Shown here piece by piece: positions 31,664 through 57,753 of a stretch of DNA of 64,000 bases. The stretch comes from Candidatus Latescibacterota bacterium. GTDB taxonomy: Bacteria > Latescibacterota > UBA2968. A program made the position numbers and the translations under genes. The notes under the pieces were generated by a model that had not been told where the DNA came from, did no database searches, and was given only the letters and a program-made list of their open reading frames with translations. The stretch's first letter is position 1; each line of letters begins with the position of its first letter. Where the stretch lies: the NCBI GenBank assembly GCA_965207885.1, contig OZ242311.1:160001-224000 (forward strand), given 5' to 3'.

Positions 31664-31980
31664 CAGCTTTCAAGGATCAGCCCCTCCCTCCGGCCTACAA
31701 CCTCCAGTAGTCATTCTCTAATCTTACATATCCATTCTCCAATCTTCAGTATCCATCCTATTGCTTCTTAGCAGTAGGTGCGACATGGGTGTCCCAAAAG
31801 TGCGGCAGAAGTGTCGCACCTGATCTTTTTTCTGGCGGATCGTATTTTTTAAATTGAAAAAAATTTTAGGAATAAATCATTGTAATAAAACAATATATTT
31901 AAAAAACAAAAAATATATCGCTAATTTAACTTAAAGTGGCACACATTTCGCTTTTACGTTTTGCAGCAAGACAGCAGTGA
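31664..31980 (+). repeat. Enhancer + sigma-54 promoter cassette, copy 2
   Basis: GTGCGACATGGGTGTCCCAAAAGTGCGGCAGAAGTGTCGCAC, AGGAATAAAT.ATTGTAATAAAA, AAAGTGGCAC. Confidence 0.85.
31937..31952 (+). promoter_or_regulatory. Sigma-54 -24/-12 promoter
   Basis: TGGCACACATTTCGCT. Confidence 0.8.
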
Positions 31981-32016
31981 CAAACAAGAAAGAGAATAAA
32001 TGCGGAGGGTGAGTCC

Positions 32017-33360
32017 TTGACACATTTTTCTACAACAGACGGATTTTTGACCAATACTCAAGCGGTCAGCAATGGCTGTGACCATAGTCGGTGGCCGGAA
32101 TGTATAAAAAAAATTCTTGCGATTTCTTTTCGCATGCCTCCCTTGCTCTCACCACGGTCTATTCAGATCCATCGGCTTTTGACCCATTGGGCGAGACGAG
32201 GTTGTGAGGTTCATGTTGTGTGTGTTAATCCCTCAACTGTGCCTCGTCTGCACTGGGATCAAGAGCTCGCAAATTTGTATCCAAACCTGATTCACTATCA
32301 TTTTGTGTCTTTTCCCAATTCACCCACCAATATTTGGCAGAAGTTGCGAAATATCGGCAGCCAAATTCCCGATCCTTATCGGAGGTGGGCACATCAAGCT
32401 GAGAGTGTTGCATTGGATTTGGCCAAGCAGATACAATTTGATCTGTTACTCACTTTTGCAAGTCCCATGTCGGACCATCTGACAGGTTTGGGAATAAAAA
32501 AACACCTGCGGTGCCCCTGGGTTGCACATTTTAGCGACCCCTGGGTCGATAATCCATACAATGCCTATATGAATACTATTTTGTCTCGGTATGTGAGTGC
32601 CAGACAAGAGCGAAGCGTCATCGCACAAGCAGATTCGGTGGTTTTTGTCTCTTCGGAAACTCAGGATCTGGTGATGAGAAAGTATCCCAGTACTTGGCGT
32701 GCCAAAACTTGGGTTATCCCTCACTATTTTGACCCAGCTATTTATCCCAAAGTTGATCCTTTAGATGTTCATCCTAAAATGATTTTTCGCCATATCGGCA
32801 GGTTTTATCAACATCGCACACCAGAGCCACTTTTTCAGGCTTTGTATCAGCTCAAATCGGAAAAACCAGTTGTTTTGGAAGGCGTGGTTTTTGAAATGAT
32901 TGGCCCATCGCCACCGTATTTGTTGCATCGGCTACGTGCCAAATACGATTTGCAAGATTGTGTCACCATCCGCTCTTCTGTGCCTTATCTGGAAAGTCTA
33001 AAATTGATGGCTGAATCGGATGTGCTTATGGTTATGGATGCGCCTGTGACAGACCCAAACGTCTTCTTGCCTTCCAAGTTAGTTGATTATTTAGGCACTG
33101 GTCGTCCATTGATGGGGATAACACCTCTACGCGGGCCTTCAGCAGACCTGATTCGGGAATCTAAGGGTTTGGTTGCTGACCCAAGAAATTTGAGCGGCAT
33201 TGTGGATGTCATTGCGGCTTACATCGGTGAATACCGAATGGATGGGCTGGTACGGCGCAAGCCAGGTAAAGCCATCATGCAAGCATATAAGGTGGACACA
33301 GTTTCCGAGCATTTTCAGGAACTGTTCCTACAGTTGGTTGAGGAAGATGATCGTAATTAG
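32017..33360 (+). CDS. GT4-like glycosyltransferase (GT-B fold); start uncertain
   Basis: PWVAHFSDPW, HIGRFY, LPSKLVDYLGTGRP. Confidence 0.8.
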   Translation: MTHFSTTDGFLTNTQAVSNGCDHSRWPECIKKILAISFRMPPLLSPRSIQIHRLLTHWARRGCEVHVVCVNPSTVPRLHWDQELANLYPNLIHYHFVSFPNSPTNIWQKLRNIGSQIPDPYRRWAHQAESVALDLAKQIQFDLLLTFASPMSDHLTGLGIKKHLRCPWVAHFSDPWVDNPYNAYMNTILSRYVSARQERSVIAQADSVVFVSSETQDLVMRKYPSTWRAKTWVIPHYFDPAIYPKVDPLDVHPKMIFRHIGRFYQHRTPEPLFQALYQLKSEKPVVLEGVVFEMIGPSPPYLLHRLRAKYDLQDCVTIRSSVPYLESLKLMAESDVLMVMDAPVTDPNVFLPSKLVDYLGTGRPLMGITPLRGPSADLIRESKGLVADPRNLSGIVDVIAAYIGEYRMDGLVRRKPGKAIMQAYKVDTVSEHFQELFLQLVEEDDRN

Positions 33361-33405
33361 AGATCGGAATGCCCTGAGTTTTGCATAAAAATCTGGGAGG
33401 ACAAC

Positions 33406-34644
33406 ATGAAAGTCTGCATCATTACAGAACAGTATCCCCCGAGTATCGGAGGACTTGGTAGCGCGACTCACCGGATTGCTAAGAATCTTGCGAACTACGG
33501 TCTTAATATCCATGTGATAGCACCTGGGTATCAATCCATTGACGTGCCCATCACATCTGTATGGGAAGATGGTGTGGTCGTTCATCGGACATTTCCCGCA
33601 TTATTCAGTTTCTACGGTGATCCTGTAGAACTCAGAGATATCGGTGCTTATGCTGTTCAATTGCACAAAGAGGTCGATTTCGACCTCTTTCATGGAATGT
33701 TTCTAATACCGTCTGGTCTGGTTGCCGCCACTACAGCTAAAGAGGTGGAGCGGCCTTTTATTGCCAGCATTCGCGGAAGTGATTTGGAGCGAATGTGTTA
33801 CAGTCCGATGGTGTCGAGCAGTATGAGATGGGTGCTAGAGCAGGCAAACTTTGTAACTTCAGTGAACCACAATCTCTTGGAAAAAGCGCAAAAACTAACA
33901 GCTATTCAAAACGGTTGTGCAATTCACAACGCATTTGATCCATCCGTCTTTAATCACTCCGATATCTTGACTATTGCAAAAGAAATGGGATGGCGGTCTC
34001 GGATGTTAGTCAAAAATTTTTTAACCGCAAAATCAAAAGGCGGGCCTGTTATAGGTACTGTCGGAAATATCAGACATGTTAAGGGTTTTTCATTCCTGCT
34101 TGAAGCATTTAAAAATATTGAGAGTATATATCCAGATGCCTATTTGATTTTGGCAGGAGATTTTTCCGATCCAGAAACAGGAAAGAAATATTTAAAGCAA
34201 ATCAAAGAATTGGGTTTGAAGCGGCGAGTGTTCATTACAGGACAAGTTCCTCATAGCCATATTTTGGCGTGGATGAAGGAGATGGATGTCTTTGTCTTAC
34301 CCTCTTTATATGAAGGGTCGCCGAATGCTCTGTTAGAAGCTATGGGGTGTGGGCGTGCAATTGTTGCGTCAGATATTGGCGGAGTCTCGGATGTTTTAGA
34401 AGATCACAAAGAGGGCTTACTCGTTCCGCCAGGACAAGCCGAAGCATTGACTTGTGCCTTAGAGGAAGTTATCCAAAATGAAGACCTTCGAAGACAATTA
34501 TGTGAAGCAGCAAAAAATAAGGCGGAGACAGTGCTGTCGCCACAACAGGAAGTTGAAACCTGGCTGGAAATTTATCGAAAAATTATCGATGGAGATGAGG
34601 AGCAAAGTGTTGAAACCAATATGGATTTGATAGCGTACTCATGA
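33406..34644 (+). CDS. Glycosyltransferase family 4
   Basis: YPPSIGG, RGSD, KG, FVLPSLYEGSPNALLEAM (E-x7-E). Confidence 0.92.
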   Translation: MKVCIITEQYPPSIGGLGSATHRIAKNLANYGLNIHVIAPGYQSIDVPITSVWEDGVVVHRTFPALFSFYGDPVELRDIGAYAVQLHKEVDFDLFHGMFLIPSGLVAATTAKEVERPFIASIRGSDLERMCYSPMVSSSMRWVLEQANFVTSVNHNLLEKAQKLTAIQNGCAIHNAFDPSVFNHSDILTIAKEMGWRSRMLVKNFLTAKSKGGPVIGTVGNIRHVKGFSFLLEAFKNIESIYPDAYLILAGDFSDPETGKKYLKQIKELGLKRRVFITGQVPHSHILAWMKEMDVFVLPSLYEGSPNALLEAMGCGRAIVASDIGGVSDVLEDHKEGLLVPPGQAEALTCALEEVIQNEDLRRQLCEAAKNKAETVLSPQQEVETWLEIYRKIIDGDEEQSVETNMDLIAYS

Positions 34645-34682
34645 AATGTGTCATAAAGCGTCTATTTCTAAAAGGATGTTAT

Positions 34683-35216
34683 ATGTCTGACAAGTTCAAA
34701 GTCTTTTTGTCGAGAGCTATGCTGATTTTTCTGGTCTTTTCGTCTTTTGGATGCAAAAAAAAGGATACTTTTCCAGTAGAACAAGCAAATGTTAAGGACA
34801 TTTTGATTGGGGAATCGGCTCCTGATTTTAGATTAGAAAGCTTGAACGGCGATTATGTTCACTTGGCAAATCAGCAGGGCAAGGTTGTTTTGATCAGTTT
34901 CTGGGCAACCTGGTGTTCTCCCTGCCAGAAGGAGCTTCCACACCTTCAGAATATCTACAATCAATACCGGGATAAAGGGGTAATTGTTTTGGCTATCAGC
35001 ATAGAAAGAAAAGAGACAGTGCAATATTTGGTAGAAAGCTCAGGTTATACATTTCCGGTATTATTTGCCGATAAGAACACCCAATTGGCATATAAGGTTC
35101 AAGGGATTCCAGCTATATATCTCATCGATAGAAATGGTGTCATACAATTCCATCGAACTGGTTATACCAGAGGCGATGAATCAAAAATTGAAAAAGAGGT
35201 TAATAAACAGATTTAG
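34683..35216 (+). CDS. TlpA/ResA-like thiol-disulfide oxidoreductase, lipoprotein
   Basis: Lipobox SFGC, APDF, FWATWCSPC, GIP. Confidence 0.9.
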   Translation: MSDKFKVFLSRAMLIFLVFSSFGCKKKDTFPVEQANVKDILIGESAPDFRLESLNGDYVHLANQQGKVVLISFWATWCSPCQKELPHLQNIYNQYRDKGVIVLAISIERKETVQYLVESSGYTFPVLFADKNTQLAYKVQGIPAIYLIDRNGVIQFHRTGYTRGDESKIEKEVNKQI

Positions 35217-35332
35217 AACAGCGATTTTAAACCATAATTTGGTAAACAATTTGTCCGCGCAGATTTTGATATAGTGAATTGTAGAGGATATTCCAAAGCG
35301 ACTTGGACATATCAGTCAAAATAGGTTCAAAC

Positions 35333-36298
35333 ATGAAATTTGTTCAATCACATTTTAGATTCCTGTTCAATTTTTTATTCATTTGCTTTTACTGTGGCTG
35401 TTCAAGGGAATATGCGCCCAATTTTTTCTTTGATGTATCAGAGATCTCTTTTGAAGGGATTTCCAGAGAAGAAGACCTAGAGGTAAATGATTTGGCTATC
35501 AACTCACGCGGACAAATTTTTATATGCGATAAAAAAAATAGCCTTGTCATCTGTTTTGCGTCCGATGGTTCGTATTTGAGGCAGATTGGAAGGCGGGATA
35601 AATACTCTGGTGACATTATTCATCCTGTGGCACTGGCAATGGGTGAAGATGACAAACTATACATCGCCTGCTCAAAGGAAATTCTTATCTATAATTCTAA
35701 AGGTAAAAAAATCAGGCAATTTAATCTTGATATTAGTGGTCCGAAGTCTATTGATGTTGATAAGTGGGGAAATATATATGTCACCGGATACCACAAAAAT
35801 GGCCTGATTCATAAATATGACCCTGAGGGGCGCAAGCTAAAAACATTTGGAAATTTGTTTGAGCATGATAATCAAATTGTTAAACGGAATTATTCGGGGG
35901 GTAATTTAAATATCATAAAAGATAGAATATATATGACGTCTTACATACCCTATAACGTGAATATATACGAATTGAATGGGCAATTGGTTACTCAGTATCA
36001 GAGACCTGAATTGGATTTTCGGCCTTCATTTGAAGTGGTTGGAGGCAACCATATTTTTCGTAGAAGTTCTCGGGGGTTGACAATATGCTCTGTGGATAGT
36101 CTGGTTTTTCATACGTTTTATTTAAATGGAAAGGGTATATATCTGGACATTTACGATAGTGACAACGCCCTGATTCATCGGGATATTCTTTTGAATGTCC
36201 ATATCTTGACATCCGACCAGATGGGATATGTCTATTATATGACCAGACGAGGCCCGGGTGCATCGGTTTTTAGAGGTCGTCCCAAAGGAGATTTTTAA
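35333..36298 (+). CDS. 6-bladed beta-propeller (NHL-repeat) lipoprotein
   Basis: Hydrophobic N-terminus ending in CGC; repeats DLAINSRGQIFI, ALAMGEDDKLYI, SIDVDKWGNIYV, KYDPEG. Confidence 0.75.
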   Translation: MKFVQSHFRFLFNFLFICFYCGCSREYAPNFFFDVSEISFEGISREEDLEVNDLAINSRGQIFICDKKNSLVICFASDGSYLRQIGRRDKYSGDIIHPVALAMGEDDKLYIACSKEILIYNSKGKKIRQFNLDISGPKSIDVDKWGNIYVTGYHKNGLIHKYDPEGRKLKTFGNLFEHDNQIVKRNYSGGNLNIIKDRIYMTSYIPYNVNIYELNGQLVTQYQRPELDFRPSFEVVGGNHIFRRSSRGLTICSVDSLVFHTFYLNGKGIYLDIYDSDNALIHRDILLNVHILTSDQMGYVYYMTRRGPGASVFRGRPKGDF

Positions 36299-39138
36299 TG
36301 GTATATCGATACTTCGGAATTGGGCTTTGTATTCTTCTTATCGGATGCGGTACACCTGATCCGCCCTCTGCTTCGCTTTTTTATACCATACGCGTGGAAG
36401 ATGCAGCAAATCAGACTTTTGAGGTGGAATTGATTATTCGAGGGGCACATCAGAGAGAGATCCCTATGCGGTTGCATACATTCGATGAATTCACTGAAGT
36501 GGAAGCATTCCAGGCATCCCATTCCACTGGACAAACTCTCAATATCGATTTAGAAGAAGAAAAAAGAAGAGTGGTTTCACATGAATTGACAACAACAATA
36601 AGAACGATATCTGCTCTGGAAAAGGAAGACATCAAAATTCTTTACCGGGTTCGCGTAGGAAAAGAGATTCACGCAAACCATGGTGTACAATCTTTTCAGA
36701 CCTATGGATATATGAATGAACGCTTTGGATTGGTTTCTGGCCGAAGTTTATTCATGTTGCCCGATATGCCTATTGTATCTGCCCAAATACGCTTCAAATT
36801 ACCAGATTCTTGGCAGGTTGCCGTACCCTGGGAGAATCATCAAGGATGGTTCAAGCCAGAGATTGGGGTATCTGAACTAAAAGAGGAACTGGTCAATACC
36901 AATGTTGCACTTGGTTTACTGGAACATGAAACAAAAAAGGTGTCTGACACAGAAGTTTCAGTCTATGTGTTTCGCCCATGGGCGCGTGCTGTTAAAGATA
37001 GTCTGTATCAGAGAGCTTTTGCAACCTATGAGTCTGTTACAAATTTGTTCGGTGGTGATGGCGGTGGGAAATATGTCTTTAGCTTCGTCCCTAAGACAAA
37101 TGATGATTTATTTATTGCAAATAGCCATTGGTCGTCTTCTCAGGGTTTTGTATTGAACCATCCGAACTTTGTCAATGATGGTACTCCTCCTCCAAGTGCT
37201 CAACGCTGGTTGACATGTATCGAAAAATTGATGGATCGCTGGATAAAATATCCACCTTATCGCATGACATTCCGATCCCAGGATGATTACTGGGTAACAA
37301 CAGGCATTCAGAAATATTTCGCGGTCAAAATTGGCGGACAATTGGGATTCTTAAATGCACGGAATTATTTGGCACACATTCGAAAAAGATTTCCCAGTGT
37401 CATTGGAGAAGTGACGGTACATAGCCAGATCAGCAAACCACTCCCCCTATCTCCACCCATTCTTGATGTGCGTCAGCTTTATACAAGCCATTCTAATGTT
37501 CGGAGAGGAAAACGAGAAGCGATTGCTCCATTTGTACTGAATTTTTTAGATGATAAGATTCAGAATCACACGTTTGGCAAAAAGACATTTATTGACGTGC
37601 TGAGATATCAGTATCAAAAAAGAGAAAATCTGGATCTGTTTGCGGATATCGGGCAGGTGGTTAATGATCAATTTGCTCGAAGTCTAAAGCCAATGCTTCA
37701 AGACCTCGGCAAACTCGCCCGCGAGGCCAATATTGTTGAGGAGGAGTCGAAACTACCATCGTTTTATGTTCGGCAAACCGATGTTACACAGTTAGATACA
37801 TTGCGGTTCTTGTTTACGGGTAATACCAAAGGTTTTTTAGAGCATTGTGGATGTAAAATAAATCAAAATGGCGGCGTTGCTCGACGCGCAACAGTTATAG
37901 AAAGAGTTCGTAGTCAATTCCCTGATGTTTTGTTGTTGGATACGGGCAATTTTACTGCTTATACAAAAAGTCATTATCGCCTGACGCCACTGATGAAGGG
38001 GGAATTTAAGCTCTACCTGGATGCGATGGAAGCAATGGACTACGATCTGGCGGCTGTATCATTCTACGAATTGTTCTATGGAGAGGATTTGTTTTTAGAA
38101 CAAATATCATCTCAGAAATTTCCCGTTGTTTGTGCAAATGTACTTAAAGATGGTAAACCTATTTCCCGCCCACATGTTTCGATTAAGGCAGGGAAATATC
38201 GAATTGGTTTTCTGGGGATCTTTGAATTTCCGCTCAGTCAAGGTGACAGGAGAGAACTCACATTTGAGGAGCGTACATCAGATCTGGTATTCTTAGACCC
38301 AGTGGCGACTATTCGCAAGTACCTGCCGAAACTCCGTCAAGATAATGATTTGGTCGTTCTAATTGGTGCCATAAGCCCACAATTGATCCAAGAAGAGATT
38401 GTTAAATTCGAAGGTATAGATATGATTATATCTACCGAAAAACACTTGAACAATTTGGTGGAATCGCCGGATGGCATGAAATTGATCTTAAATGATCTTT
38501 CGGGCGTCAAAGGCGAAACATTGGTCGTTTATGACATTAACTCTCTATATGCAATTGATCTGGTTGAGGTAACGGTAGATCAAGATGGCATTGTGCAGGG
38601 ATGGGTTACCAAAAAAACGCTGGGTGAAGATGTAGAAGATCATGAAATGGTGCGTTCGTTGATCGATAATTTCTATACAGAAACAGTGGCTATGGCCGCA
38701 GATGTCAAGCCATTGATGCAATGGCATAAATATTTTCAGGAGTCGGATTTTGTAGGTGCCGATGCGTGTAAAACATGTCATCCGAGCCAGCATGAACAGT
38801 GGAAAACGACAGAACACGCGACAGCTTTTAATACACTTTTAGATGCAAAACGGCAATACCAGCCCGACTGTGTGAAATGCCATGTCACTGGTGCTGGTCA
38901 TCAAAGCGGGTATCAGTTTGGAAATGTCAGGCATCCTTTAATCAATGTGCAATGTGAAATGTGTCACGGTCCAGGCAGTCAGCATGTCACAAATCCCATT
39001 GCGGGTAAAATGATTCGCACGCCCTCAAAACAGCTTTGCACAACCTGCCACGATCAGGAACATTCCGATTTTGTCATGGAAGAATATTATCCCAAAGTCA
39101 AACACAGTATTGATCTTGCCAAAAAGACGACGCATTGA
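36298..39138 (+). CDS. Lipoprotein fusion: degenerate M61-like peptidase domain + UshA/5'-nucleotidase-like domain with CxC + tetraheme c554-type cytochrome
   Basis: Lipobox LIGC; HCGC..NGGVARRAT and LLDTGN; four heme motifs CKTCH, CVKCH, CEMCH, CTTCH. Confidence 0.75.
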   Translation: MVYRYFGIGLCILLIGCGTPDPPSASLFYTIRVEDAANQTFEVELIIRGAHQREIPMRLHTFDEFTEVEAFQASHSTGQTLNIDLEEEKRRVVSHELTTTIRTISALEKEDIKILYRVRVGKEIHANHGVQSFQTYGYMNERFGLVSGRSLFMLPDMPIVSAQIRFKLPDSWQVAVPWENHQGWFKPEIGVSELKEELVNTNVALGLLEHETKKVSDTEVSVYVFRPWARAVKDSLYQRAFATYESVTNLFGGDGGGKYVFSFVPKTNDDLFIANSHWSSSQGFVLNHPNFVNDGTPPPSAQRWLTCIEKLMDRWIKYPPYRMTFRSQDDYWVTTGIQKYFAVKIGGQLGFLNARNYLAHIRKRFPSVIGEVTVHSQISKPLPLSPPILDVRQLYTSHSNVRRGKREAIAPFVLNFLDDKIQNHTFGKKTFIDVLRYQYQKRENLDLFADIGQVVNDQFARSLKPMLQDLGKLAREANIVEEESKLPSFYVRQTDVTQLDTLRFLFTGNTKGFLEHCGCKINQNGGVARRATVIERVRSQFPDVLLLDTGNFTAYTKSHYRLTPLMKGEFKLYLDAMEAMDYDLAAVSFYELFYGEDLFLEQISSQKFPVVCANVLKDGKPISRPHVSIKAGKYRIGFLGIFEFPLSQGDRRELTFEERTSDLVFLDPVATIRKYLPKLRQDNDLVVLIGAISPQLIQEEIVKFEGIDMIISTEKHLNNLVESPDGMKLILNDLSGVKGETLVVYDINSLYAIDLVEVTVDQDGIVQGWVTKKTLGEDVEDHEMVRSLIDNFYTETVAMAADVKPLMQWHKYFQESDFVGADACKTCHPSQHEQWKTTEHATAFNTLLDAKRQYQPDCVKCHVTGAGHQSGYQFGNVRHPLINVQCEMCHGPGSQHVTNPIAGKMIRTPSKQLCTTCHDQEHSDFVMEEYYPKVKHSIDLAKKTTH

Positions 39139-39196
39139 AATAAGTTGCGAAATAAGTTTTGGGGAGTTAAATCCAATATGAAGGGAGGTGAAAAAC

Positions 39197-39493
39197 ATGT
39201 TGAATTTTAAAAAAGCAAGTGCCTTTTTGGGAGCAGTTCTGTTTCTCGTAGCAGGTTCTTTCTTCTCCCAAAATACGGCGGTGAAGTCGGCAAGTCCTTA
39301 TGGTAATTTGCTCGCTTCCTCACTGTTTGTCAAAGATGCACAAGCTTCAGGCCATTGGAAGTGTGGCTATTGTAGCGGGGCTACATGCGTAAAAGATAAG
39401 CATACCTTGGGACTTCAGTGTAGGCAGTATAGCACGAATCCCGACGAGTGCCATGTCCGAGAGGTTTCAGAAGATATTTGTAGCGGCGGTTGA
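39197..39493 (+). CDS. Small secreted Cys-rich protein (98 aa; six Cys in the C-terminal 48 aa)
   Basis: AAGGGAGGTG RBS; signal peptide; ...DAQA|SGHWKCGYCSGATCVKDKHTLGLQCRQYSTNPDECHVREVSEDICSGG. Confidence 0.8.
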   Translation: MLNFKKASAFLGAVLFLVAGSFFSQNTAVKSASPYGNLLASSLFVKDAQASGHWKCGYCSGATCVKDKHTLGLQCRQYSTNPDECHVREVSEDICSGG

Positions 39494-39522
39494 GCGGTAA
39501 AAATCTGTAAGGCACTATACCG

Positions 39523-39569
39523 TATCTGGGTGCTGGAGCATTAAATTTTTGTGTTCCTGCGCCCAGATA
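39523..39569 (+). terminator. Intra-operonic stem-loop after the peptide gene
   Basis: TATCTGGGTGC...GCGCCCAGATA stem with no strong U-tail. Confidence 0.55.
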
Positions 39570-39609
39570 ATAAGGAAGAATCGTTCGAGAACTTCAGGTT
39601 ACAGGAGGC

Positions 39610-41316
39610 ATGCACATGAAATCACTTAAGATATGGCTCGTGTTGCTTTCGATTGGATTCTTGCAGTGTGGCAAATCTTCGGATTATTCTCAGGGACCGA
39701 AAAGTTCTGGCGGTGAGGTCCGTATTCATCTGCTGAGTGTTGTGTATCAGCCAGAAAAGGGTGCTGTTCTGATTCAATGGGACCAGACAGGTGATGCTGG
39801 CAAGGGTAATTTTCACATTCAACGCAAAGAAGGCAATGGCGACTTTGCAGACATCGGTCAGAAAGCGGCTGATGGTTCGGGTTCAGAAGCGGGTGTTTTT
39901 TCTTTTTTGGACACAGAAGCACTTGCTGGAGAATTGATGTCTTATCGAGTAGTCTTGCGTTTGGAAGATAAGTGGACCTATCCAAGCAATGTGTTGTACA
40001 CCCGGATGCCCGGTGCAAGACTGATGGATGTGAGTCTCGACCCGGAGCGTGCAGGGGTTCAGATTCGCTGGACGCCAGATGTAGAACAGGGGATGGCTTA
40101 TGAAGTGGTTCGGCGTATTGGTGAGGGGACAGAAGCAGTGGTGTATCGGACGATGGATGCCGGATCGAAAGCGTTTGTGGATGGTCCGATTGTGGGAAAT
40201 GAAGTGCACACGTATTGGATTCGCACGCTGACGCAGGGGGGATCGAAGTTGAAAAGCAGGCCTCATAAAACGGGCCTCTACCTCACATCTTACGCTACTC
40301 AGTTTCCCATAGTACCCGAAACATCCATTCGCCTTGCCATAGGTTCTATTGGTTCCTATACGACGACGCACCCGCTTCTTTGTGTATTGGGATCAGGTGG
40401 TGTGACAATGCATCGCAAGGCGTACTACCCACCAGATAGGCTCAGGGTCCCCCCGGGAGGACCGCCGACGGTTGATGAAGCGTCTATCTATCTGAATCTG
40501 AATGAAGGACCTACTCTGTTATCCTCTTCTATTTCTATAGCAGGCTCTTCCTTGCCAGTGATTTGGAATCCAGTAAGTTCTCAGATAGATCTCACCCGCT
40601 ATGGATATACTTTTGTCGCTGGCATTGATCCTCATACACAAGCGGTTCATATTAAGCTTTTCGGTACCTTTAGTTCAGGATGGACTTTTCAGTTTCGTAA
40701 ACCGTATCCCTATCTATCTGAACCGCCTATCTGGCACGTTGACCCTGACGGCCGTACAGCCATAACACAAGAATTCGTAAGGCGGTATGATAAGTATAAT
40801 CATTTTCGGCTCTATGTGGTTGCAGGTGGTACACTGAAAATTTTCAACATTTTTGCATTCGGGGGCCGCTTTCCGAAAGCCGAAATCGTTGAAGTGTGGT
40901 CAGAACCCATCCAGGCGACAACCCCACCTTATGATTTGTTGTTTTGGAAAAACACGCTCTGGATGTCCTTTCCTGATGAACACCGCCTTGTAAAAGGACA
41001 GATCAACTTTAGTAGCGACGCAGAACCTCAGAATATTACCTGGCAAGATATTCCGCTGATGGACGGCATGCAGCCCAGTGCATTGACGGTCAATTTTTCA
41101 GGTCAGTTGTGTGTGCTGGATATGCACAACAGTAAAATTTGGATATTGAATCAGGAGGGTGATCCCATAACCCATATTGAAGTCAAAGGTCCGGGTTTTA
41201 TGCAGGACGGGCGTCTGAATGGCGATCTTGTCGCAGGTCTTGAAGAGTTACAGGATGTGCTCTATGTGGTCAAACCATCGGGCATTATGACGATACTTAA
41301 AACCGAGATGCCATGA
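39610..41316 (+). CDS. Hypothetical lipoprotein with FN3-like N-terminal domains and beta-rich C-terminus; paralog of 48826-50385
   Basis: Lipobox-like FLQC; shared PGA.L.D and YE..R....E.V...F.D....GN....Y motifs with the paralog. Confidence 0.65.
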   Translation: MHMKSLKIWLVLLSIGFLQCGKSSDYSQGPKSSGGEVRIHLLSVVYQPEKGAVLIQWDQTGDAGKGNFHIQRKEGNGDFADIGQKAADGSGSEAGVFSFLDTEALAGELMSYRVVLRLEDKWTYPSNVLYTRMPGARLMDVSLDPERAGVQIRWTPDVEQGMAYEVVRRIGEGTEAVVYRTMDAGSKAFVDGPIVGNEVHTYWIRTLTQGGSKLKSRPHKTGLYLTSYATQFPIVPETSIRLAIGSIGSYTTTHPLLCVLGSGGVTMHRKAYYPPDRLRVPPGGPPTVDEASIYLNLNEGPTLLSSSISIAGSSLPVIWNPVSSQIDLTRYGYTFVAGIDPHTQAVHIKLFGTFSSGWTFQFRKPYPYLSEPPIWHVDPDGRTAITQEFVRRYDKYNHFRLYVVAGGTLKIFNIFAFGGRFPKAEIVEVWSEPIQATTPPYDLLFWKNTLWMSFPDEHRLVKGQINFSSDAEPQNITWQDIPLMDGMQPSALTVNFSGQLCVLDMHNSKIWILNQEGDPITHIEVKGPGFMQDGRLNGDLVAGLEELQDVLYVVKPSGIMTILKTEMP

Positions 41317-41339
41317 TGGTATGGTAGAGAGATAGGGCG

Positions 41340-43241
41340 ATGAAGAGGTTTGGAAAAATGCAGGATACTACACGCGCTGAACACTACCGATTTATGGGTA
41401 TGGATCAATTTCCAGTTGGCAAGGACCTGTGGATGGGCTATTCCGGGAATAAGCGTGCGGGGAAAATAGTCTCCAGTCAAATCATCGACTTGTTATGGCG
41501 ATGCAGAACATTTGCAACATTAGATGATCATGCCCAAAATTTGCTCGGCGCAAATATGAATGGCAATCACGCGCCAGTACATTGGTGGCAAGTTTTTCAG
41601 CGATTTCTCCCAAACCACAATCGCGGACACAGACGGTTAAAGGAAATCAAACAACAATTGCAGGAACTCGCTGATAATGGACTTCTTGTTGCATACCATG
41701 ATCTCATCAAAGCCTGCTTTAAAAAGGAATTCCAGGATCTTCCACATCAGACCATCACTTCGGTCGGCATTATGACCTGCAATCGCGTGGATTACTTAAA
41801 ACGCGCACTTTCCAGTTATGTTGCCAATGCCAAACAGTTCGAGAGAAAACAGGCGTTTATCGTTGTTGATGGGTCTGAACATGTTCATACAAGAAAAAAA
41901 TATCGGCAGGTATTGAAGAGCATGCAAAAGAGTTGTGAGGGGACGATTTACTATTGTGGATTAGAGGAAAAAAAGCAATTTGCCAAAAGGCTAATTGAGC
42001 AAGGTCTGCCGCCTGATGTTGTCAATTTTTCTTTGTTTGACGTAGAACAGTGTGGCAACTCCACAGGTATGAATCGAAACGCCCTGTTGTTGAGTACAGC
42101 GGGCGATCTTCTTTTTAGCGCAGATGACGATACGGTTTGCCGCATAGCTCCTGCGCCTCATTTTAAGGAAGGGCTTGCATTTAAGTCAGGCACAGACCCG
42201 AATGAGTGGTGGTTTTATCCCAACCGACAAGCTGGCCTTCGAGCCGTCAATTTTGCAAAATGGGATATTCTATCTGTTCACGAAACGCTGCTTGGAAAAG
42301 ATGTGGGGCAGTGTATCTCTGATTTTGGTAAAAATGAAATAGATTTTAATCAATTGGATGTGACATTTTTTGAACGCCTTGCGTCACGGGGCGGGCGCGT
42401 TTTGATCACCTTTAACGGATTGATCGGTGATTCGGGGAGCCGTTTGCCCACATATCAGTTTCTGTTAAACGATCAGTCCCACGAACGCTTTGTGCATTCA
42501 CACGCGGCTTATTGTTCTGCATGTACGTGTGGCGAAGTCCTCCGGTCAGTGAATCGTGCAACGGTCAGTGATGCTGCATTTTGTATGACGGGATTTGTGG
42601 GGTTGGACAATCGCACTTTGTTACCGCCCTTTATGCCCGTAAACCGCGGACAAGATGGTACTTTTGGTCTTACCTTGTGGACGTGTTTTACCAATTCTTG
42701 TTTTGGTCATTTGCCCTGGGCTGTTTTGCACGCACCGCTCCAGTCTCGAACTTTCTCGCGAGATGATATTTGGCAGAACGCATTGCTTATGAGAATTAAC
42801 GATCTGATCCGGATGATCATCCGGGCATATAAGACCAGACCCGGTCAGCTCAATGATGCAGAAAATCTACGCAATTTGGGTGATCATCTGATTGATCTGG
42901 GGAATATGCCACTTGACGACTTTGAAGAATTTGTTCGCTTGCTTCGATGCCAATGGGCGAGTGACAGAATTGTTGCTCTGGATCATCGCCTCAATATATA
43001 TCGGGGAAAACCCAATTATTGGGCACGGGATGTTGCAAAATATATTGATGTGCTCAAGGGCGTGATTTCGGCGCGGCCCGTGCCTCATGATCTGATGGAT
43101 GGCCGAAGCACAAAAGATGCGCGTCTTATGTCGCAGCGTTTGGTGGGGCGGTTTGGGCAACTCCTGACATGGTGGCCCGATATGGTTGACGTGGCAAAAT
43201 ACTTAAAAGAAAAAGGACAGGGACTCGCAAAGCCTGTTTGA
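41340..43241 (+). CDS. GT-A/GT2-like glycosyltransferase with N-terminal winged-helix (RRE-like) extension
   Basis: VGIMTCNR..L.RAL.SY, IVVDGS, SADDD (DxD); N-terminal LLWRCRTFATLDDHA...LQELADNGLL. Confidence 0.6.
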   Translation: MKRFGKMQDTTRAEHYRFMGMDQFPVGKDLWMGYSGNKRAGKIVSSQIIDLLWRCRTFATLDDHAQNLLGANMNGNHAPVHWWQVFQRFLPNHNRGHRRLKEIKQQLQELADNGLLVAYHDLIKACFKKEFQDLPHQTITSVGIMTCNRVDYLKRALSSYVANAKQFERKQAFIVVDGSEHVHTRKKYRQVLKSMQKSCEGTIYYCGLEEKKQFAKRLIEQGLPPDVVNFSLFDVEQCGNSTGMNRNALLLSTAGDLLFSADDDTVCRIAPAPHFKEGLAFKSGTDPNEWWFYPNRQAGLRAVNFAKWDILSVHETLLGKDVGQCISDFGKNEIDFNQLDVTFFERLASRGGRVLITFNGLIGDSGSRLPTYQFLLNDQSHERFVHSHAAYCSACTCGEVLRSVNRATVSDAAFCMTGFVGLDNRTLLPPFMPVNRGQDGTFGLTLWTCFTNSCFGHLPWAVLHAPLQSRTFSRDDIWQNALLMRINDLIRMIIRAYKTRPGQLNDAENLRNLGDHLIDLGNMPLDDFEEFVRLLRCQWASDRIVALDHRLNIYRGKPNYWARDVAKYIDVLKGVISARPVPHDLMDGRSTKDARLMSQRLVGRFGQLLTWWPDMVDVAKYLKEKGQGLAKPV

Positions 43242-43278
43242 GTTACACCTGATTATTGGCGGCGGGTATGGAAGTGCA

Positions 43279-45672
43279 ATGCTCAAAAATTACTTCACAG
43301 TTTCGATTCGAAACGTACTGCGAAACCGCATCTATTCCCTGATCAATATTTCGGGATTGGCAATGGGCATCGCGCTTTGCATTTTGGCCTATCTGTATGT
43401 TTATCACGAGTGGACTTACGACACATTTCACAAAAATGCAGACCGCATTTACAGGGTCTATAAAATACAAGAGCAGGTACGCGGTCAAAGATCAATAAGT
43501 GCTTTTGTTCGCGCACCACTGGCACCGGCACTTGAGAATCAATTCGCGGACATTGAGCACTGCGTTAGACTGACAAAAAAAAAGGCTCAGATGAAATATG
43601 GCGATAAAGCCTTTCATGAAGATATACTCTTTGTCGATACAGGCTTTTTCGATGTATTCACTTTTCCGCTGCTTCAGGGGCAATCTGAATCTGTTTTTAT
43701 GCATAAAAATTCGATTGTTTTGAGCGAGAGGATGGCCCGTAAATATTTCGGTGATGAATATCCTCTATATGAGAAACTCTCGGTGAAATTATGGGAGGTA
43801 CACGAATTTATTGTCACGGGAATTGCGAAGAATCCCCCTGAAAATTCCAGTATTCAATTTGATTTTTTACTGCCGTATCAGAGTATGCCGCTTTTTGGAA
43901 CGGATATCGACAGTTGGAATATTTATATGCCAACTTCGCTTTATGTCCAATTGTCCGGTGCAGCACGGGCGACAGACCTTGAAGCGCGATTTCCAGACCT
44001 TGTTGAAGAGGTTATACACAAAAGCGCGAGCAGGTTCCCATTCCAGTTAAAACTGCAACCGATAACAGAAATACATCTCAATCCTGACATTTCTGGCCCT
44101 GAATCTGTGGGCAATCCGATCCATGCCTATATTTTATCGGGCATTGCACTGGGAGTTCTTCTGATTGCGTGTATCAATTTTGTGAACCTGTCCATTGCGA
44201 TTTCTTTTACACGCGCAAAAGAAATTGGCATGCGCAAGGTGGTTGGTGCTTCACGCCTGCAACTCGTTCAGCAGTTCTGGTGTGAGTCCTTTTTATTGAC
44301 ACTGATCTCCTGTATTCTTGGCGCAGTGCTGGCAGTATCTTTTTTGCCGACCTTTAATCGCTTAATGTATAAGCGTCTCTCCATTGATTATTACACCCAT
44401 GATATTACGATTGTCGTGCTTTTTGGCCTGATATTTTGCGTGAGTTTTATTGCCGGTGGTTATCCCGCAGCATTCTTGTCGGGGTTTCGTCCTGTAGAAT
44501 CATTAAAGAATACATTGAATATCGAGTGGAGAAATTATTTTCGTCAGGGCTTTGTCCTCTTTCAGTTCATATTATCTACATTTTTTATCATCAGCACGAT
44601 TCTTATGTACAGTCAAATAGGTTTTTTGAAATCCAAAAATTTGGGTTTTGATGCAGAGCAAATCGTTGTATTCCGCATCGACAATTTGGAATCTGCTGAT
44701 CGGGTGCGGATGCTGGATATTTTCAAGAATGAATTACCCAAACATCCTACCATCCTGGGGGTTTCTGGGGCTTCTTTTATTTTTAACGATCCATTTATTG
44801 GACGCGCTTTTTATTCGTTAAAGAATGGGGATAGAAAACGAATTGAGATTCATCTTTTGGGCGTTGATAGCGATTTTTTTTCTATGCTCGATATTGACTT
44901 AGATAGTGGTCGCGGTTTCAGGCAGGGAAGCGCGCCCGATGGCATTGTGATAAACAATGCGTGGAAAGAGAGTTTTCAGTGGGATGAACCGATGGAAAAT
45001 TATGTCAGATATAGATTCGAAGACTTGCGATATCCCACACTCCAAAATCCTCGGGTAATCGGCGTTGTAGAAGATTTTCATTCTTTGTCACTGCACCATG
45101 CGATTAAACCTACAATTTTCTATCAGACTTCCTCCCCCAGATATTTGTACGTTAAAATTCGTTCTGACAATATCTCCACTGCGCTGTCATTAATAAAAGA
45201 TAAGTGGAATGAATTTGATGCTGGCCTTCCTTTCGAATACATGTTTCTGGACAAACACGTTGAACGTCAGTATCGAGAAGAAGAAAGATGGGGGCAGGTT
45301 GTTGCGTATGCCTCCTGTTTTGCAATTGTTATTGCCTGCCTCGGTGCCCTTGGCTTGACAATGCTTGCAATGGCCCGGAGAACAAAAGAGATCGGCATTC
45401 GAAAAATCCTCGGCGCATCTGTTCTGCACATTATCTCGTTGGTTTCAAGAGACTTTCTGCGACTGGTGTTCATTGGCAATGTGATTGCCTGGCCTATTGC
45501 TTATTATGTCATAGACCGTTGGTTACAGGATTTTTCTTACCGAATAGATCCCAATATTGGGCATTTTCTGTTCGGCGGGGGACTCGTCGTGATTATCGTA
45601 TTTTTGACGGTGGGCTGTTTGGCTGTCAAGGTCGCCAAAAATGATCCCGTGAAAGCCATTCGGTATGAATAG
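43279..45672 (+). CDS. ABC transporter permease (MacB/FtsX-like, duplicated)
   Basis: MLKNYF..RN, INISGLAMG, two R.KEIG.RK..GA motifs, NLGFD, DPVKAIRYE. Confidence 0.93.
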   Translation: MLKNYFTVSIRNVLRNRIYSLINISGLAMGIALCILAYLYVYHEWTYDTFHKNADRIYRVYKIQEQVRGQRSISAFVRAPLAPALENQFADIEHCVRLTKKKAQMKYGDKAFHEDILFVDTGFFDVFTFPLLQGQSESVFMHKNSIVLSERMARKYFGDEYPLYEKLSVKLWEVHEFIVTGIAKNPPENSSIQFDFLLPYQSMPLFGTDIDSWNIYMPTSLYVQLSGAARATDLEARFPDLVEEVIHKSASRFPFQLKLQPITEIHLNPDISGPESVGNPIHAYILSGIALGVLLIACINFVNLSIAISFTRAKEIGMRKVVGASRLQLVQQFWCESFLLTLISCILGAVLAVSFLPTFNRLMYKRLSIDYYTHDITIVVLFGLIFCVSFIAGGYPAAFLSGFRPVESLKNTLNIEWRNYFRQGFVLFQFILSTFFIISTILMYSQIGFLKSKNLGFDAEQIVVFRIDNLESADRVRMLDIFKNELPKHPTILGVSGASFIFNDPFIGRAFYSLKNGDRKRIEIHLLGVDSDFFSMLDIDLDSGRGFRQGSAPDGIVINNAWKESFQWDEPMENYVRYRFEDLRYPTLQNPRVIGVVEDFHSLSLHHAIKPTIFYQTSSPRYLYVKIRSDNISTALSLIKDKWNEFDAGLPFEYMFLDKHVERQYREEERWGQVVAYASCFAIVIACLGALGLTMLAMARRTKEIGIRKILGASVLHIISLVSRDFLRLVFIGNVIAWPIAYYVIDRWLQDFSYRIDPNIGHFLFGGGLVVIIVFLTVGCLAVKVAKNDPVKAIRYE

Positions 45673-45716
45673 GCGCACTTTTATACTATTTACGGTAAGA
45701 CAGGAAGTTTATAGAA

Positions 45717-48700
45717 ATGAAATATTCTCTTTCAATTTTATTGCTCGTGTTTTCTGCTACGGTGCAGTGTGAGGATTTGCCGCAACGCGAAGCGGTTCCC
45801 CGTCTGGCGGTGTTTCCGTTGGTTTCGGAGAAAGATCCCGATTACGGGGTTTTTATGGCTGACCGCCTGGTGGATGAGTTGATGCGCCATCGGGATATTC
45901 CCGCGTATCAGGGGCGCTGGTTTGAACTGGTAGAGCCTGATACGATTCCACGGCGCAGGATGAAGGGGATGGTGGAGACCAAACAGGCGTTGAAAGATTA
46001 TGATTTGTTTTTGTTGAAAACAGCGGCTCGCGCAGAGCAGGCATTGATCGGATTTGTTTCTGATGCTGGGACGCGCACATTGCATGTGCGGATTGTGGAT
46101 CTGGACACTGGGGAACCGGTTTGGATGGGCAAGGCGCGGGATGATGTCAAATGGCAGTGGATCTATGCCCAGCGCGATATAGGAGAGATTGCACTGGGCA
46201 ATTTGATGGCGCAACTCGGCTTTCAGGAGGCCAATCGGCATGGGAGGATGATGCGGTCAGATGAATGGCCGTTGCAGGTGGTATTCGCGCCTTTGCACAC
46301 TTCGCAAAAAGCGCTGGTGGGAGGATATGTGCGGTTGATTAGAGAGGGTATGATAGGTGATGGGTTATTTGATAGATTGGATATGTCACAGCCAATAGGC
46401 AGGCGACTGAATACTGCGGATCGGACGTTGTTGTCGCATAAGGCAGATGCTGTTTTATGCGGTAGTTTGATGGCTACGGGCAAGGACAATGCGATCAATG
46501 CTGTGGGGGTTGCATTGCGGCTGATTGATACGTCTTCTGGGCGTGTTTTGTGGGCGGGCAGTGCCAATGGTCGGCGCGTCTGGCGCAAGGATCGGTTTGA
46601 CGATTTGTCGCAGACGATTGCCACAGATCTGGTCGCGGGATTGGCAAAGGTTAAATCGGGTACTCAGACAGATGCCTGGGCAAATCAACCGGAACCTCAA
46701 GACGGACCGAGCTGGGTGAATCGGGGGATGGTCGCGCTGGAGCGCGGGCTTTTGAGCGATGCTGAAGAGGCATTTTTAAAGGCAGAGTCTTTTGAGGGTA
46801 GTGAGGTGCTATCTTATGAGGGGTTAGGGCGGGTTTATGCGCGACGCCCAGCCCTGAGGCAGCGCGCTGTTTCGTATTTTTATCGCGCTATAGAGGCGGA
46901 TACGACGCGCGCAGATTTGTATTACCAGATGGCGTCGGTGTATTTTGATATCGGTACGGATCAGTGCGTAGATATGGCGTCTCGAGCGATTGCGATTGAT
47001 TCGACGTATAGCGCGCCCTATCAGTTGTTGGGTGACTGGTTTGCGCGCGATGATTTTTACGCTTTGCCTCAGGACAATACAACAGCCGCTGCGTATTATA
47101 CGCACTATTTGTCTCTGGAACCGGATGATGTTGATGCGGTGACAAAGCTGGGTGCTGTGTTGTTGCGCATGGAGGATCAGCAGGCGATCGCGCGACAGAT
47201 TTTGCCCTTTATGAAACGCCATCCAGAGGCGCTTGATTTGTTGCCCGTTGCAGCACAATGGGCTTATCGGGCGGGGGATTACGAGCGCGCTTCGGAGTAT
47301 TGGGATCGGTTTTTGGAGCGGATTGATGCACAGACGCTGGCGTTGCACGTTGATCCAACCCCTATTTTGTCAGATGCTCAACGCGCGACCTACAATGCGC
47401 TTTCTAAGGGGGAGAAGCAAAATTTTATCGATCGGTTCTGGATGCAAAAGGATCTGGATCCGACTACAGAAGTGAATGAGCGTTTGCAAGAACACTATCA
47501 GCGGGTGTGGATGGCGCGGCAATATTTCGCAGGGTCTGCGTATCCATGGGATCGGCGAGGTGAGGTGTATTTGCGCTATGGAGAGCCGGATTATCGTTCG
47601 CGGTCTGGTCGCGCGCCTGGAGTAATGAGTGTTGCGGTGCAGCGGGTGAAAGACGAGTTGTACGCGCAGTTGTACACGCGTCCACACGAAGGCGCACTTG
47701 TGGGCACGGTGTTTCCTGTGCGGAGTTCGCGGGCGATGTTTGCCGATTCGTTTAATCTGATGGGAAGAAATGACGCGGATTCTCACACGATGGGCGATGG
47801 TTATTTGCCCGTCACCTCAGGGGAAGATAATAGTCTCGTGCCCTGGGAATCGTGGGTGTATGTGACGGTTGGCGGGGGGATGGAGATTACATTTACGGAT
47901 GAGATGGGATCGGGGCATTTCAATTTTGCGCCGATTCCGCTGCGCCAGCCGATAGGGATGCGGTCCATTGCCAGGATTCAGGAAAATGCGCCGGAAACGT
48001 TTTATATGCAGGCTGTAGGCGAGATGCCGGAGCAATATCGACCGTGGTGGCAAACGCGGGCGTTGGAATTTTATTACGATGTGGCCGATGCGCGCGGGGG
48101 ATATTTCATGACGCGGGTGGATGTGGCCTATGGTTTACCGATAGATGTGGAGAAGACCGGAAGGGGCGATTTGACACTATCTATTGCGCTTTATGATTCG
48201 GTGACAAACCGCGCGTTTCGCACGCGCCGAACGGTTGTGCGGAAAGACACGCTATCTGATTCGAATGCTATGCTGACCGATTTGTTGACCTTGCCCGTGC
48301 CGCCCGGCACATATCATTTGACGGTGAAGGCAGAGAATGTCAGTGCCAATCGCGTCAGTTTGTTGCAGCAGGTTCTTGCGGTTGAGTCTTATGGTGATTC
48401 GGAATTGCAGATGAGCGATCCGGTATTGGCCGCGCAGATTGACGAGATGGATGTGGATGATTCTTTTCGCCGAAAGAATTTGCGGGTGTTGCCTTTGCCT
48501 ACGCGCGCATTTCTCATTGGGCAGGAGATGGGGTTGTATTTTGAGGTTTATAATCTGGTGGCAGACGAGTTTGGGCAGACGCGCTATCGCGTGACGATTC
48601 AGATTGCGGCTCTGGAGCAGGTAGAGGGTTTGCGCATGCTGTTGACTGGGCAGGAGGTCAATCCCGAAGTGTCGATGTCATTTGAACAGGTGGATACACA

Positions 48701-50385: not shown

Positions 50386-50404
50386 TTGTTCGCGGCGGGG
50401 TCTT

Positions 50405-57737: not shown

Positions 57738-57753
57738 TGGCACGCATCTTGCT
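57738..57753 (+). promoter_or_regulatory. Sigma-54 -24/-12 promoter
   Basis: TGGCACGCATCTTGCT, near-consensus. Confidence 0.85.

Follow-up and report, generated by a model that had tools for sequence, protein, structure and literature searches.

The 64,000-nucleotide stretch of DNA analyzed here (the window, G000:C1:160001–224000) belongs to a Candidatus Latescibacterota bacterium whose genome, a single contig of 6.23 Mb, we designate G000; other G numbers denote genomes compared with it. The window contains a run of seven open reading frames (ORFs), from a TlpA-like thioredoxin to an ADOP-family permease, all co-oriented on the plus strand as the first-pass annotation of this DNA had described. 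That annotation took the whole run for a glycocin-type locus producing a peptide that is made on the ribosome and modified after translation (a RiPP). We find that the run is a conserved three-gene core accompanied by unrelated neighbors. The core comprises the gene for a 98-amino-acid precursor (pep), the gene for a 946-amino-acid lipoprotein (the fusion), and the gene for the thioredoxin. We propose, and judge the chances to be about even, that the trio is an extracytoplasmic thiol-redox maturation module for a leader-bearing peptide. The proposal builds on the anatomy of the genes, the conservation of their motifs, their linkage across genomes, and the hypervariability of the peptide core. 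The features of the core, all on the plus strand, are as follows.

34641–35216, plus: TlpA/ResA-like periplasmic thioredoxin with a WCSPC active site, core partner
36298–39138, plus: fusion lipoprotein (lipobox, M61_N-like domain, UshA-like domain, four CxxCH), core
39181–39190, plus: strong Shine-Dalgarno sequence of pep, AAGGGAGGTG, 6 nucleotides (nt) ahead of the ATG
39197–39493, plus: pep ORF, 98 amino acids, exactly six Cys
39197–39346, plus: pep residues 1–50, signal peptide and conserved leader (SPYGNLLASSLFVKDAQA, AxA end)
39347–39493, plus: pep residues 51–98 and stop codon, hypervariable six-Cys core
39524–39568, plus: stable stem-loop 3′ of pep, lacking a U-run

Linkage of the Precursor, the Fusion, and TlpA

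A first comparison, with 40 relatives, recovered a full-length fusion from G019 only. When 168 genomes of the phylum were searched with the N-terminal domain of the fusion, six were found to carry it: G000, G019, G083, G102 (two loci), G104, and G106. A first pep profile (A1) matched three of the 168 genomes; once extended with sequences from the fusion loci, it matched eight: G017, G103, and the six with a fusion. Each of the seven fusion loci has a pep-family ORF on the same strand, and a fusion without pep was never found in the 168 genomes. TlpA adjoins the fusion at five of the seven. The annotation had suggested, as a check, looking for a small Cys-rich ORF with a signal peptide and for TlpA as conserved neighbors of fusion homologs, and would have counted the absence of such an ORF as a refutation; the counts speak in its favor. 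A search of genome contigs with the whole fusion returned no related locus.

The fusions are 27–45% identical between lineages and represent about five independent lineages, G102 and G104 being close kin whose fusions are 81–94% identical. The arrangement of the genes varies: pep lies 58–145 nt behind the fusion in G000, G019, G083, and G106 and upstream of it in G104 and at both G102 loci. The remaining genes of these neighborhoods are not shared between the fusion lineages. The gene orders outside the window are:

G083: NHL protein, fusion, pep (six-Cys core), GWxTD-domain protein
G019: fusion, pep, GWxTD-domain protein; 6.6 kb upstream, after a GT4 glycosyltransferase gene, another pep–GWxTD pair
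G106: TlpA (WCSPC), fusion, pep, 1025-amino-acid unknown, second pep
G104 and both G102 loci (G102a, G102b): pep, one to three unknown genes of 316–343 amino acids, TlpA, fusion

This linkage bears directly on an alternative that we consider unlikely, though deserving of serious weight, in which the genes are merely co-located. The fusion would be a respiratory or electron-transfer lipoprotein with a substrate of its own, TlpA would serve only the attachment of its hemes, and pep would be an independent secreted protein (an effector or surface factor) that shares an operon and σ54 control with them in a variable envelope island. Consistent with such a view, G017 and G103 have pep but no fusion match, the surroundings of the locus are a mosaic of envelope and polysaccharide genes, the gene immediately after pep is a GWxTD gene in four cases, and TlpA/ResA proteins are classic cytochrome c maturation factors. 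It fits poorly, however, with the retention of pep at every fusion locus despite the divergence of the fusions and the turnover of the other neighbors, and with the failure to find any fusion that lacks pep. Moreover, the linkage has outlasted changes in gene order, for which shared regulation by itself is a poor explanation.

Some of these loci have peculiarities of their own. The proteins encoded between pep and TlpA in G102 and G104 (L074:11702–14776, minus strand; L075:7301–8332, plus strand; L076:11376–12356, minus strand) form a family of 316–381 amino acids, present in one to three tandem copies, with a common N-terminal HG(G/H)xGDRVYP motif, no Pfam match, and no homolog in G000. The pep ORF of the first G102 locus (L075:7108–7275, plus strand) has the leader followed by only three Cys and a tail free of Cys, and it may be degenerate or frameshifted. 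The fusion of the second G102 locus (L076:8019–10756, minus strand) is divided between two overlapping frames of 146 and 788 amino acids, which may reflect a frameshift or faulty assembly.

A Conserved Leader and a Hypervariable Core

All members of the pep family have a signal-peptide-like N-terminus, a (G/S)PYxxL...(D/N)AxA segment, and then a Cys-rich core. The leader is about 20 residues long (GPYxxL...AxA). In an alignment of 13 sequences, Y35 and A48 never vary and at least 90% have A50; within the core the invariant positions are Cys only. Among five close homologs the first 52 residues are 88% identical as compared with 59% for the core. The count of six Cys given by the annotation for the 98-amino-acid protein is exact, and all 12 genus-type sequences likewise have exactly six in the core, with counts outside the genus of 3, 4, 5, 6, 6, 6, and 7. 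The cores are mostly acidic, and a CGxC motif within them is kept only in the genus. A Cys is found 0–3 residues from the C-terminus in 10 of the 13 aligned sequences, the C-termini themselves being varied (CSGG, CSG, CSV, CSW, CT, and others).

The hypervariability of the core is also evident among strains. The window stretch occurs in sponge metagenome runs, and in contigs from sponge samples no other stretch of the locus diverges as much as the pep core. An RNA-library contig (X6) has 103 unlike letters in place of nt 39374–39485, between flanks that are about 98% and about 94% identical to the window. The sequence from another run (X5) breaks off at these two positions as well, and its loose end encodes a different core, in frame. 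In a DNA contig from another study (X7), 47 of 376 positions in the pep region differ, versus 94 of about 7,350 upstream.

The signals around pep noted by the annotation, a very strong ribosome-binding site and a stem-loop behind the gene, are both present. The two pep copies of G019, the one of G083, and the two of G106 are likewise preceded by GGAGG-type sites. The 101-nt stretch containing the stem-loop folds at −37.7 kcal/mol (z −4.67), a value equaled by none of 200 shuffled sequences, and comparable hairpins are found behind pep at other loci, with z of −3.6 or lower at five of ten.

Pep matched no Pfam and no NCBIfam family at E ≤ 0.01, DUF2282 and BUF_6/12Cys included. Against 1.84 billion representatives its profile recovered five real relatives and one unrelated repeat protein, and a word-indexed search gave 15 clusters; a smaller alignment (A2) found nothing in metagenome contigs and genome contigs. 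The closest homologs carry the NCBI names Candidatus Poribacteria and Gemmatimonadetes MAG (metagenome-assembled genome). An AlphaFold2 model of pep has helices at residues 6–20 and 36–48 and a small β-rich core with a predicted local distance difference test score (pLDDT) of 71–81, the overall pLDDT being 64. The model gave no Foldseek match at E ≤ 0.001 and no VIA match at Z ≥ 5 (the best was 2.5), a result that does not imply a novel fold. The part of the earlier RiPP assignment that concerns the precursor, a conserved leader followed by a hypervariable Cys-rich core, is supported by the anatomy of the family; modification of the peptide stands as an inference.

The Fusion Lipoprotein

The fusion begins with a lipobox (LLIGC), followed by an M61_N-like domain at about residues 25–180 with an unmodeled stretch extending to about residue 490, a UshA-like domain with the sequence E-H-C-G-C-K at residues 515–520, and a tetraheme cytochrome c region with CxxCH motifs at 824, 858, 886, and 914. 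Across ten fusions, C17 (of the lipobox), E515, C517, G518, C519, K520, and three of the CxxCH motifs are invariant, and at least 90% keep the fourth CxxCH. The fusion of a CxC motif to a tetraheme part described by the annotation is borne out, with an invariant CGC.

The N-terminal domain matched Peptidase_M61_N weakly in the window fusion (E 0.0056) but in nine of ten family members overall, with a best E of 6.5e-6. The likeness to peptidase family M61 stops there: the catalytic M61 model had no match at E ≤ 1 in any of the ten fusions, and HExxH is absent from the window sequence. The domain has a single invariant His (H128), its invariant residues being mostly Trp, Tyr, and Arg, and it probably binds a peptide rather than cleaving one. 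The label of a dead peptidase that the annotation gave it would have as its basis the M61_N β-sandwich and the absence of HExxH.

The C-terminal 450 residues match NF041198, a UshA-like (seleno)protein family, at 230.7 bits, which is under the cut-off of 275, and the fusion also matches cytochrome c554/c7 families. Its HCGC motif and four CxxCH correspond to the Cys form of the CxU motif of NF041198 together with the multiheme part. The fusion differs from that family in falling below the cut-off and in adding an M61_N-like N-terminal domain of about 490 residues. The available text of two sources lists NF041198 as a family of CxU selenoproteins, gives no function for it, and mentions no peptide or TlpA partner (PMC2398784, PMC13188914).

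A 5′-nucleotidase-type fold of residues from about 500 to 790 is confirmed by Foldseek matches with E of about 1e-16 to 1e-17 and by PDB profile matches. Dimetal phosphoesterases have the canonical metal-binding motifs DxH, GD, and GNHE. At the positions of these motifs, located by eye rather than by computed alignment, the fusion has TGNTKG, DTGN, and SFYEL, and the metal ligands of a phosphoesterase appear to have been lost.

A complex prediction for fusion residues 25–946 with pep residues 23–98 gave a best score of 0.08 against a mark of 0.32, which is evidence neither for nor against binding.

The TlpA Partner and Envelope Thiol Chemistry

The window TlpA matches AhpC-TSA (E 2.4e-26), Redoxin (E 2.4e-22), and the ResA subfamily (E 1.1e-35; 123 bits, under the cut-off of 170). 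With its thioredoxin fold, its WCSPC active site, and a hydrophobic N-terminal segment that ends in FGC, it has the characteristics of a TlpA/ResA protein, in agreement with the annotation. Of the TlpA paralogs in G000, it is also the one most similar to the fusion-adjacent TlpA of a distant family (f4), at 93.6 versus 80.5 bits. All three core proteins have export signals, making action outside the cytoplasm plausible.

A second protein hints at the chemistry of the C-terminal half of the fusion, of which every genome of the genus carries a paralog. In G000 this paralog, P0025 (994 amino acids; L056:4647–7631, minus strand, corresponding to G000:C1:4954647–4957631, outside the window), is encoded directly behind signal peptidase I (LepB). 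It has a LEVCGC motif and a tetraheme part, and it matches NF041198 at 255.7 bits, again under the cut-off of 275. Downstream segments have a thioredoxin fold according to sub-threshold matches to DSBA, Thioredoxin_4, and GILT; there is a CPYG motif, and faint PDB matches to DsbA and protein disulfide oxidoreductase (PDO) fall at a CAVC motif. These weak matches converge in linking the CGC-tetraheme module to thiol-disulfide chemistry of the cell envelope. The G000 genome gave no match to DsbB or VKOR and a single match to DSBA. P0025 is a candidate for a heme-linked thiol oxidase of the envelope.

A Proposed Maturation Pathway

We infer the binding, the chemistry, the site of cleavage, and the role of the product to be as follows. 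Pep would be a Sec-exported precursor, the fusion a membrane-tethered lipoprotein, and the TlpA-like thioredoxin the third part of the system. After export, the leader would dock pep on the noncatalytic M61-like domain of the fusion, and a CGC/heme relay would oxidize the Cys of the core, with the hemes taking up the electrons. Disulfides, or possibly another Cys cross-link, would result. TlpA could supply an opposing arm for reduction or proofreading, or it could keep the CGC and heme sites reduced. The leader would be removed at the AxA site, and the mature product may be a compact, strain-variable peptide with an outward-facing role.

A fuller version of the proposal is possible but, in our view, doubtful. 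It would make the route wholly extracytoplasmic and leader-guided, with a dead M61-like domain as the reader of the leader, a CxC-tetraheme pseudo-5′-nucleotidase as the enzyme, disulfides or Cys cross-links as the products, and a dedicated TlpA as the proofreader; P0025 would be the oxidase that stands in for the missing DsbB/VKOR of these bacteria, and the CxU family would gain its first proposed function.

Several observations weigh against the maturation module. With regard to linkage, two of the eight pep genomes, G017 and G103, gave no match to the N-terminal domain of the fusion genome-wide, and the pep gene of G103 has no TlpA within 10 kb. A second copy of pep, not directly beside the fusion, is present in both G019 and G106, and in G019 and G083 no TlpA was found within the 20–40 kb examined. 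All of the loci come from a few, partly related genomes of one phylum. With regard to TlpA, a thioredoxin beside a c-type cytochrome could merely serve heme attachment, and G000 holds 11 TlpA-like domains at E ≤ 1e-15. With regard to the fusion, the apparent loss of phosphoesterase metal ligands from the UshA-like domain is judged against the canonical motifs rather than by computed alignment. An AlphaFold2 model built from six sequences had a mean pLDDT of 49 and left residues 206–415 unmodeled; Foldseek matched it to 5′-nucleotidases only, and beyond a β-sandwich the N-terminal domain had no fold match. Contact between the core proteins is shown by no model or experiment. Finally, odd numbers of Cys in some cores do not fit a product in which all Cys form disulfides.

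Resemblance to Known Systems

We rate the trio as undescribed: the literature searched contains no description of pep, the fusion, and TlpA together, and the function proposed here comes from gene linkage and motifs. In its logic, though with unrelated parts, it most resembles the maturation of methylamine dehydrogenase. In that system the diheme enzyme MauG and the thioredoxin-like MauD act in the periplasm on the small, disulfide-rich MauA; here, too, a heme enzyme and a TlpA/DsbE-like protein would act on a small exported Cys-rich polypeptide. The trio differs from the Mau system in that its heme domain is a c554/c7-like tetraheme unit on a pseudo-5′-nucleotidase scaffold with CGC, its polypeptide is hypervariable and has a leader, and it has no dehydrogenase large subunit.

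Another reading, to which we give a small but real chance, is that the trio installs a heme-driven Cys modification other than a plain disulfide (a thioether, another cross-link, or a cofactor) and that pep is a true periplasmic RiPP matured in a MauG-like manner. This reading draws on the same linkage as the maturation module. It would accommodate the variation in the number (3–7) and spacing of the Cys, the restriction of CGxC to the genus, and the frequent near-C-terminal Cys, and the window TlpA does show a weak match to MauD (TIGR02661, E 4e-8). But the core has no conserved non-Cys residue that could be the partner in a cross-link, the heme domain resembles the electron-transfer cytochromes c554/c7 and not MauG or a peroxidase, and the six Cys of most members fit three disulfides.

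Oxidation of exported Cys pairs is best known from DsbA/DsbB and VKOR, in which a thiol relay delivers the electrons to the respiratory chain. The maturation module would share with them an extracytoplasmic thiol relay, but its proposed sink is a set of four covalent hemes on the same polypeptide as the CGC, and it would be rare and dedicated to one substrate rather than a housekeeping system.

The nearest described RiPPs that have Sec signals and are rich in Cys are, in the portions of the literature available, the bufferins, in which Cys residues are converted to thiooxazoles by a multinuclear nonheme iron-dependent oxidative enzyme (MNIO, DUF692) together with a DUF2063 protein, the modification taking place without export, both in vitro and upon co-expression in Escherichia coli (PMC11626156). 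Like pep, bufferins are periplasmic products of small dedicated operons; they differ, as far as that text goes, in depending on MNIO, whereas the proteins co-encoded with pep are exported lipoproteins. A search of the whole of G000 for MNIO (PF05114) gave no match, a Caulobacter control being positive; no separate search was made for DUF2063.

Sulfur oxidation offers a further parallel. The Sox system comprises the SoxYZ carrier, with its GGCGG C-terminus, as well as SoxAX and SoxB. Pep could in principle be a SoxY-like Cys carrier, with the UshA/SoxB-like domain and the hemes loading or unloading sulfur species and TlpA acting as a SoxS-like reactivator. The likelihood of this is slight. P0025 matches SoxB (TIGR04486) at 67 bits, which is sub-threshold, a near-C-terminal Cys is common in pep, and in G106 a two-domain rhodanese gene (L073:6185–7036, plus strand) precedes the TlpA–fusion–pep genes by about 1.2 kb. 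On the other hand, conservation would be expected of a carrier, yet the core of pep is hypervariable and its C-termini vary; the dimetal ligand motifs, by comparison with the canonical ones, appear to be replaced in the fusion; SoxB is not among the 15 NCBIfam matches of the window fusion; and no Sox family, SoxYZ, SoxAX, and SoxCD included, was matched among the window ORFs scanned, which were not every ORF.

If correct, the maturation module would represent a route of ribosomal-peptide maturation located wholly in the periplasm and would involve a type of enzyme without a prior function, a pseudo-phosphoesterase with a CxC/CxU center and multiple hemes. Among RiPPs that are Sec-exported and rich in Cys, the only family found in the literature searched, insofar as its text was available, is that of the bufferins, whose MNIO acts without export. 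The trio would make testable both the role of the UshA-like CxU selenoprotein family and the means by which exported Cys are oxidized in bacteria that have neither DsbB nor VKOR. The module is rare (six to eight of 168 genomes, in one phylum), and its chemistry is entirely deduced.

Genes outside the Core

The other features of the region, all on the plus strand, are these.

31937–31951, plus: σ54-type promoter-like site, TGGCACACATTTCGC, one mismatch to TGGCAC-N5-TTGC, preceding the run
32017–33360 and 33406–34644, plus: two GT4 genes (Pfam GT4 families) upstream of TlpA
35303–36298, plus: NHL β-propeller protein (NHL repeat, E 1.1e-6), an optional neighbor
39610–41316, plus: 568-amino-acid exported protein (lipo568) of a multi-copy family, no family match, outside the core
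41340–43241, plus: 633-amino-acid putative GT-A-like protein (GT633), faint Glycos_transf_2 match, outside the core
43279–45672, plus: ADOP-family duplicated MacB/FtsX permease with no adjacent ATPase, outside the core
45717–48836, plus: protein with tetratricopeptide repeats (TPR) and a GWxTD domain (TIGR04514), a possible looser associate

The genes were named correctly in the first-pass annotation as regards the two GT4 proteins, the NHL protein, the MacB-like permease, and a σ54-like promoter ahead of the run. Its assembly of them into a glycocin-type layout did not hold. In glycocin loci such as that of sublancin, the SunA precursor is encoded with the S-glycosyltransferase SunS, the oxidoreductases BdbA/BdbB, and the C39-ABC exporter SunT. 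The window resembles such loci in having a precursor, a thiol-disulfide oxidoreductase, a glycosyltransferase, and a transporter in one run and, presumably, a disulfide-rich product. It differs in that pep has a Sec-type signal and no double-glycine leader, in that an ABC ATPase, a C39 peptidase, and known RiPP enzymes are all absent from the 37 window ORFs scanned, and in that the glycosyltransferase and permease are not conserved with pep.

We therefore see very little prospect that all seven genes form a glycocin-like RiPP system that makes a glycosylated peptide rich in disulfides and exports it through the MacB-like permease. The genes are indeed co-oriented behind one σ54-like promoter, and an RNA-library contig extends from the fusion's 3′ end as far as the start of the ADOP gene. 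Yet GT633, the ADOP permease, and lipo568 are present at none of the other pep loci. An 81% ortholog of lipo568 lies directly beside a 90% ortholog of the ADOP permease in G020, a genome in which no pep family member was found, and NHL, GT4, and ADOP genes recur together without pep, the fusion, or TlpA in G001, G002, and G008, in one case with a σ54 activator. In a contig of run X7 the end of lipo568 is followed, after eight other letters, by the start of the GWxTD gene (41318 to 45716), so that GT633 and the ADOP gene are skipped; this is a weak hint, the short side of the joint being 25 letters only and the full form being present in the same run.

Nothing indicates that the peptide is glycosylated, as the annotation had thought possible. 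GT633 was found in one of the 40 relatives (G002, 39% identity), at a locus where tblastn detected no pep. The annotation took it for a GT-A enzyme with a winged-helix N-terminus; its only match is a faint one to Glycos_transf_2 (residues 141–188, E 0.04), and a sequence search of PDB gave nothing significant. A GT2 or GT4 gene directly precedes pep at two loci only, those of G017 and the first G019 copy. Lipo568, an FN3 lipoprotein according to the annotation, has paralogs that include the product of window positions 48787–50385; it likewise gave nothing significant against PDB and has only a faint NHL-like match, at residues 489–529. In G083, as in the window, the gene directly upstream of the fusion encodes an NHL protein.

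The GWxTD gene is treated here as a loose associate within this order and not as part of the core. A gene of this kind comes immediately after pep in G017, G019 (twice), and G083, and one lies 6 kb downstream of pep in the window. It was rejected as an obligate partner because orthologs of the pep-adjacent copies are found elsewhere in G000 without pep: the copy beside pep in G017 has a 90% ortholog in G000, and the G019 copies match G000 genes beside BlaI/BlaR-like genes. No plausible Cys-rich secreted ORF was seen upstream of the other GWxTD genes of G000, and no relevant paper on GWxTD was found in the literature searched. The proximity of TlpA to GWxTD genes was also considered, 4 of the 11 TlpA-domain genes of G000 being within 15 kb of one versus about 2 expected, and was judged not meaningful.

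G000 has 35 GWxTD-domain genes (TIGR04514) in all, and at three sites copies of about 1040–1070 amino acids lie beside a lipoprotein-like gene of the lipo568 family of about 530 amino acids. When G000:C1 ~1879000–1895000 is compared with L033:18394–18711, at the site where the G017 order is GT2, pep, GWxTD, the GT2 and GWxTD genes are kept in G000 and an insert of about 15 kb takes the place of pep; it contains IS3-type transposase genes, a gene for a 1599-amino-acid kinase-like protein, and others.

Regulatory Signals and Occurrence in Sponges

The σ54-like site at 31937 has near-identical copies at 27677 and 51828 and a perfect copy at 57738. All four sites are intergenic and upstream of plus-strand envelope genes; the motif overall is not enriched (78 matches versus 69 expected). 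Two NtrC-type σ54 activators are encoded in the window, at 25849–27237 and 56202–57557. Together with a PAS histidine kinase, the four sites and two activators look like one σ54 regulon. The region from about 27.7 to 59.7 kb is devoted to the cell envelope and polysaccharides, with genes for a UDP-ManNAc dehydrogenase, WecB, GT4 proteins, outer membrane β-barrel proteins, and a histidine kinase.

RNA-library contigs from sponge cover positions 31942–50457, although contigs can neither prove transcription nor rank genes. The strain-variable core and the presence of the locus in sponge RNA libraries fit a molecule with which sponge symbionts compete or interact with the host. The k-mer depths of the pep contigs in two RNA-library runs were 293 and 106 versus 36 and 19 upstream; these values were not used as a measure of expression, since genes cannot be ranked by contig depth and DNA may have been carried over.

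Elsewhere in the window, a SocA/Panacea antitoxin-domain gene (12720–13313) and a gene for a DUF6785/DUF6784 membrane protein (13853–15838) sit between a glucose/sorbosone dehydrogenase–cytochrome c gene and an ATP synthase operon.

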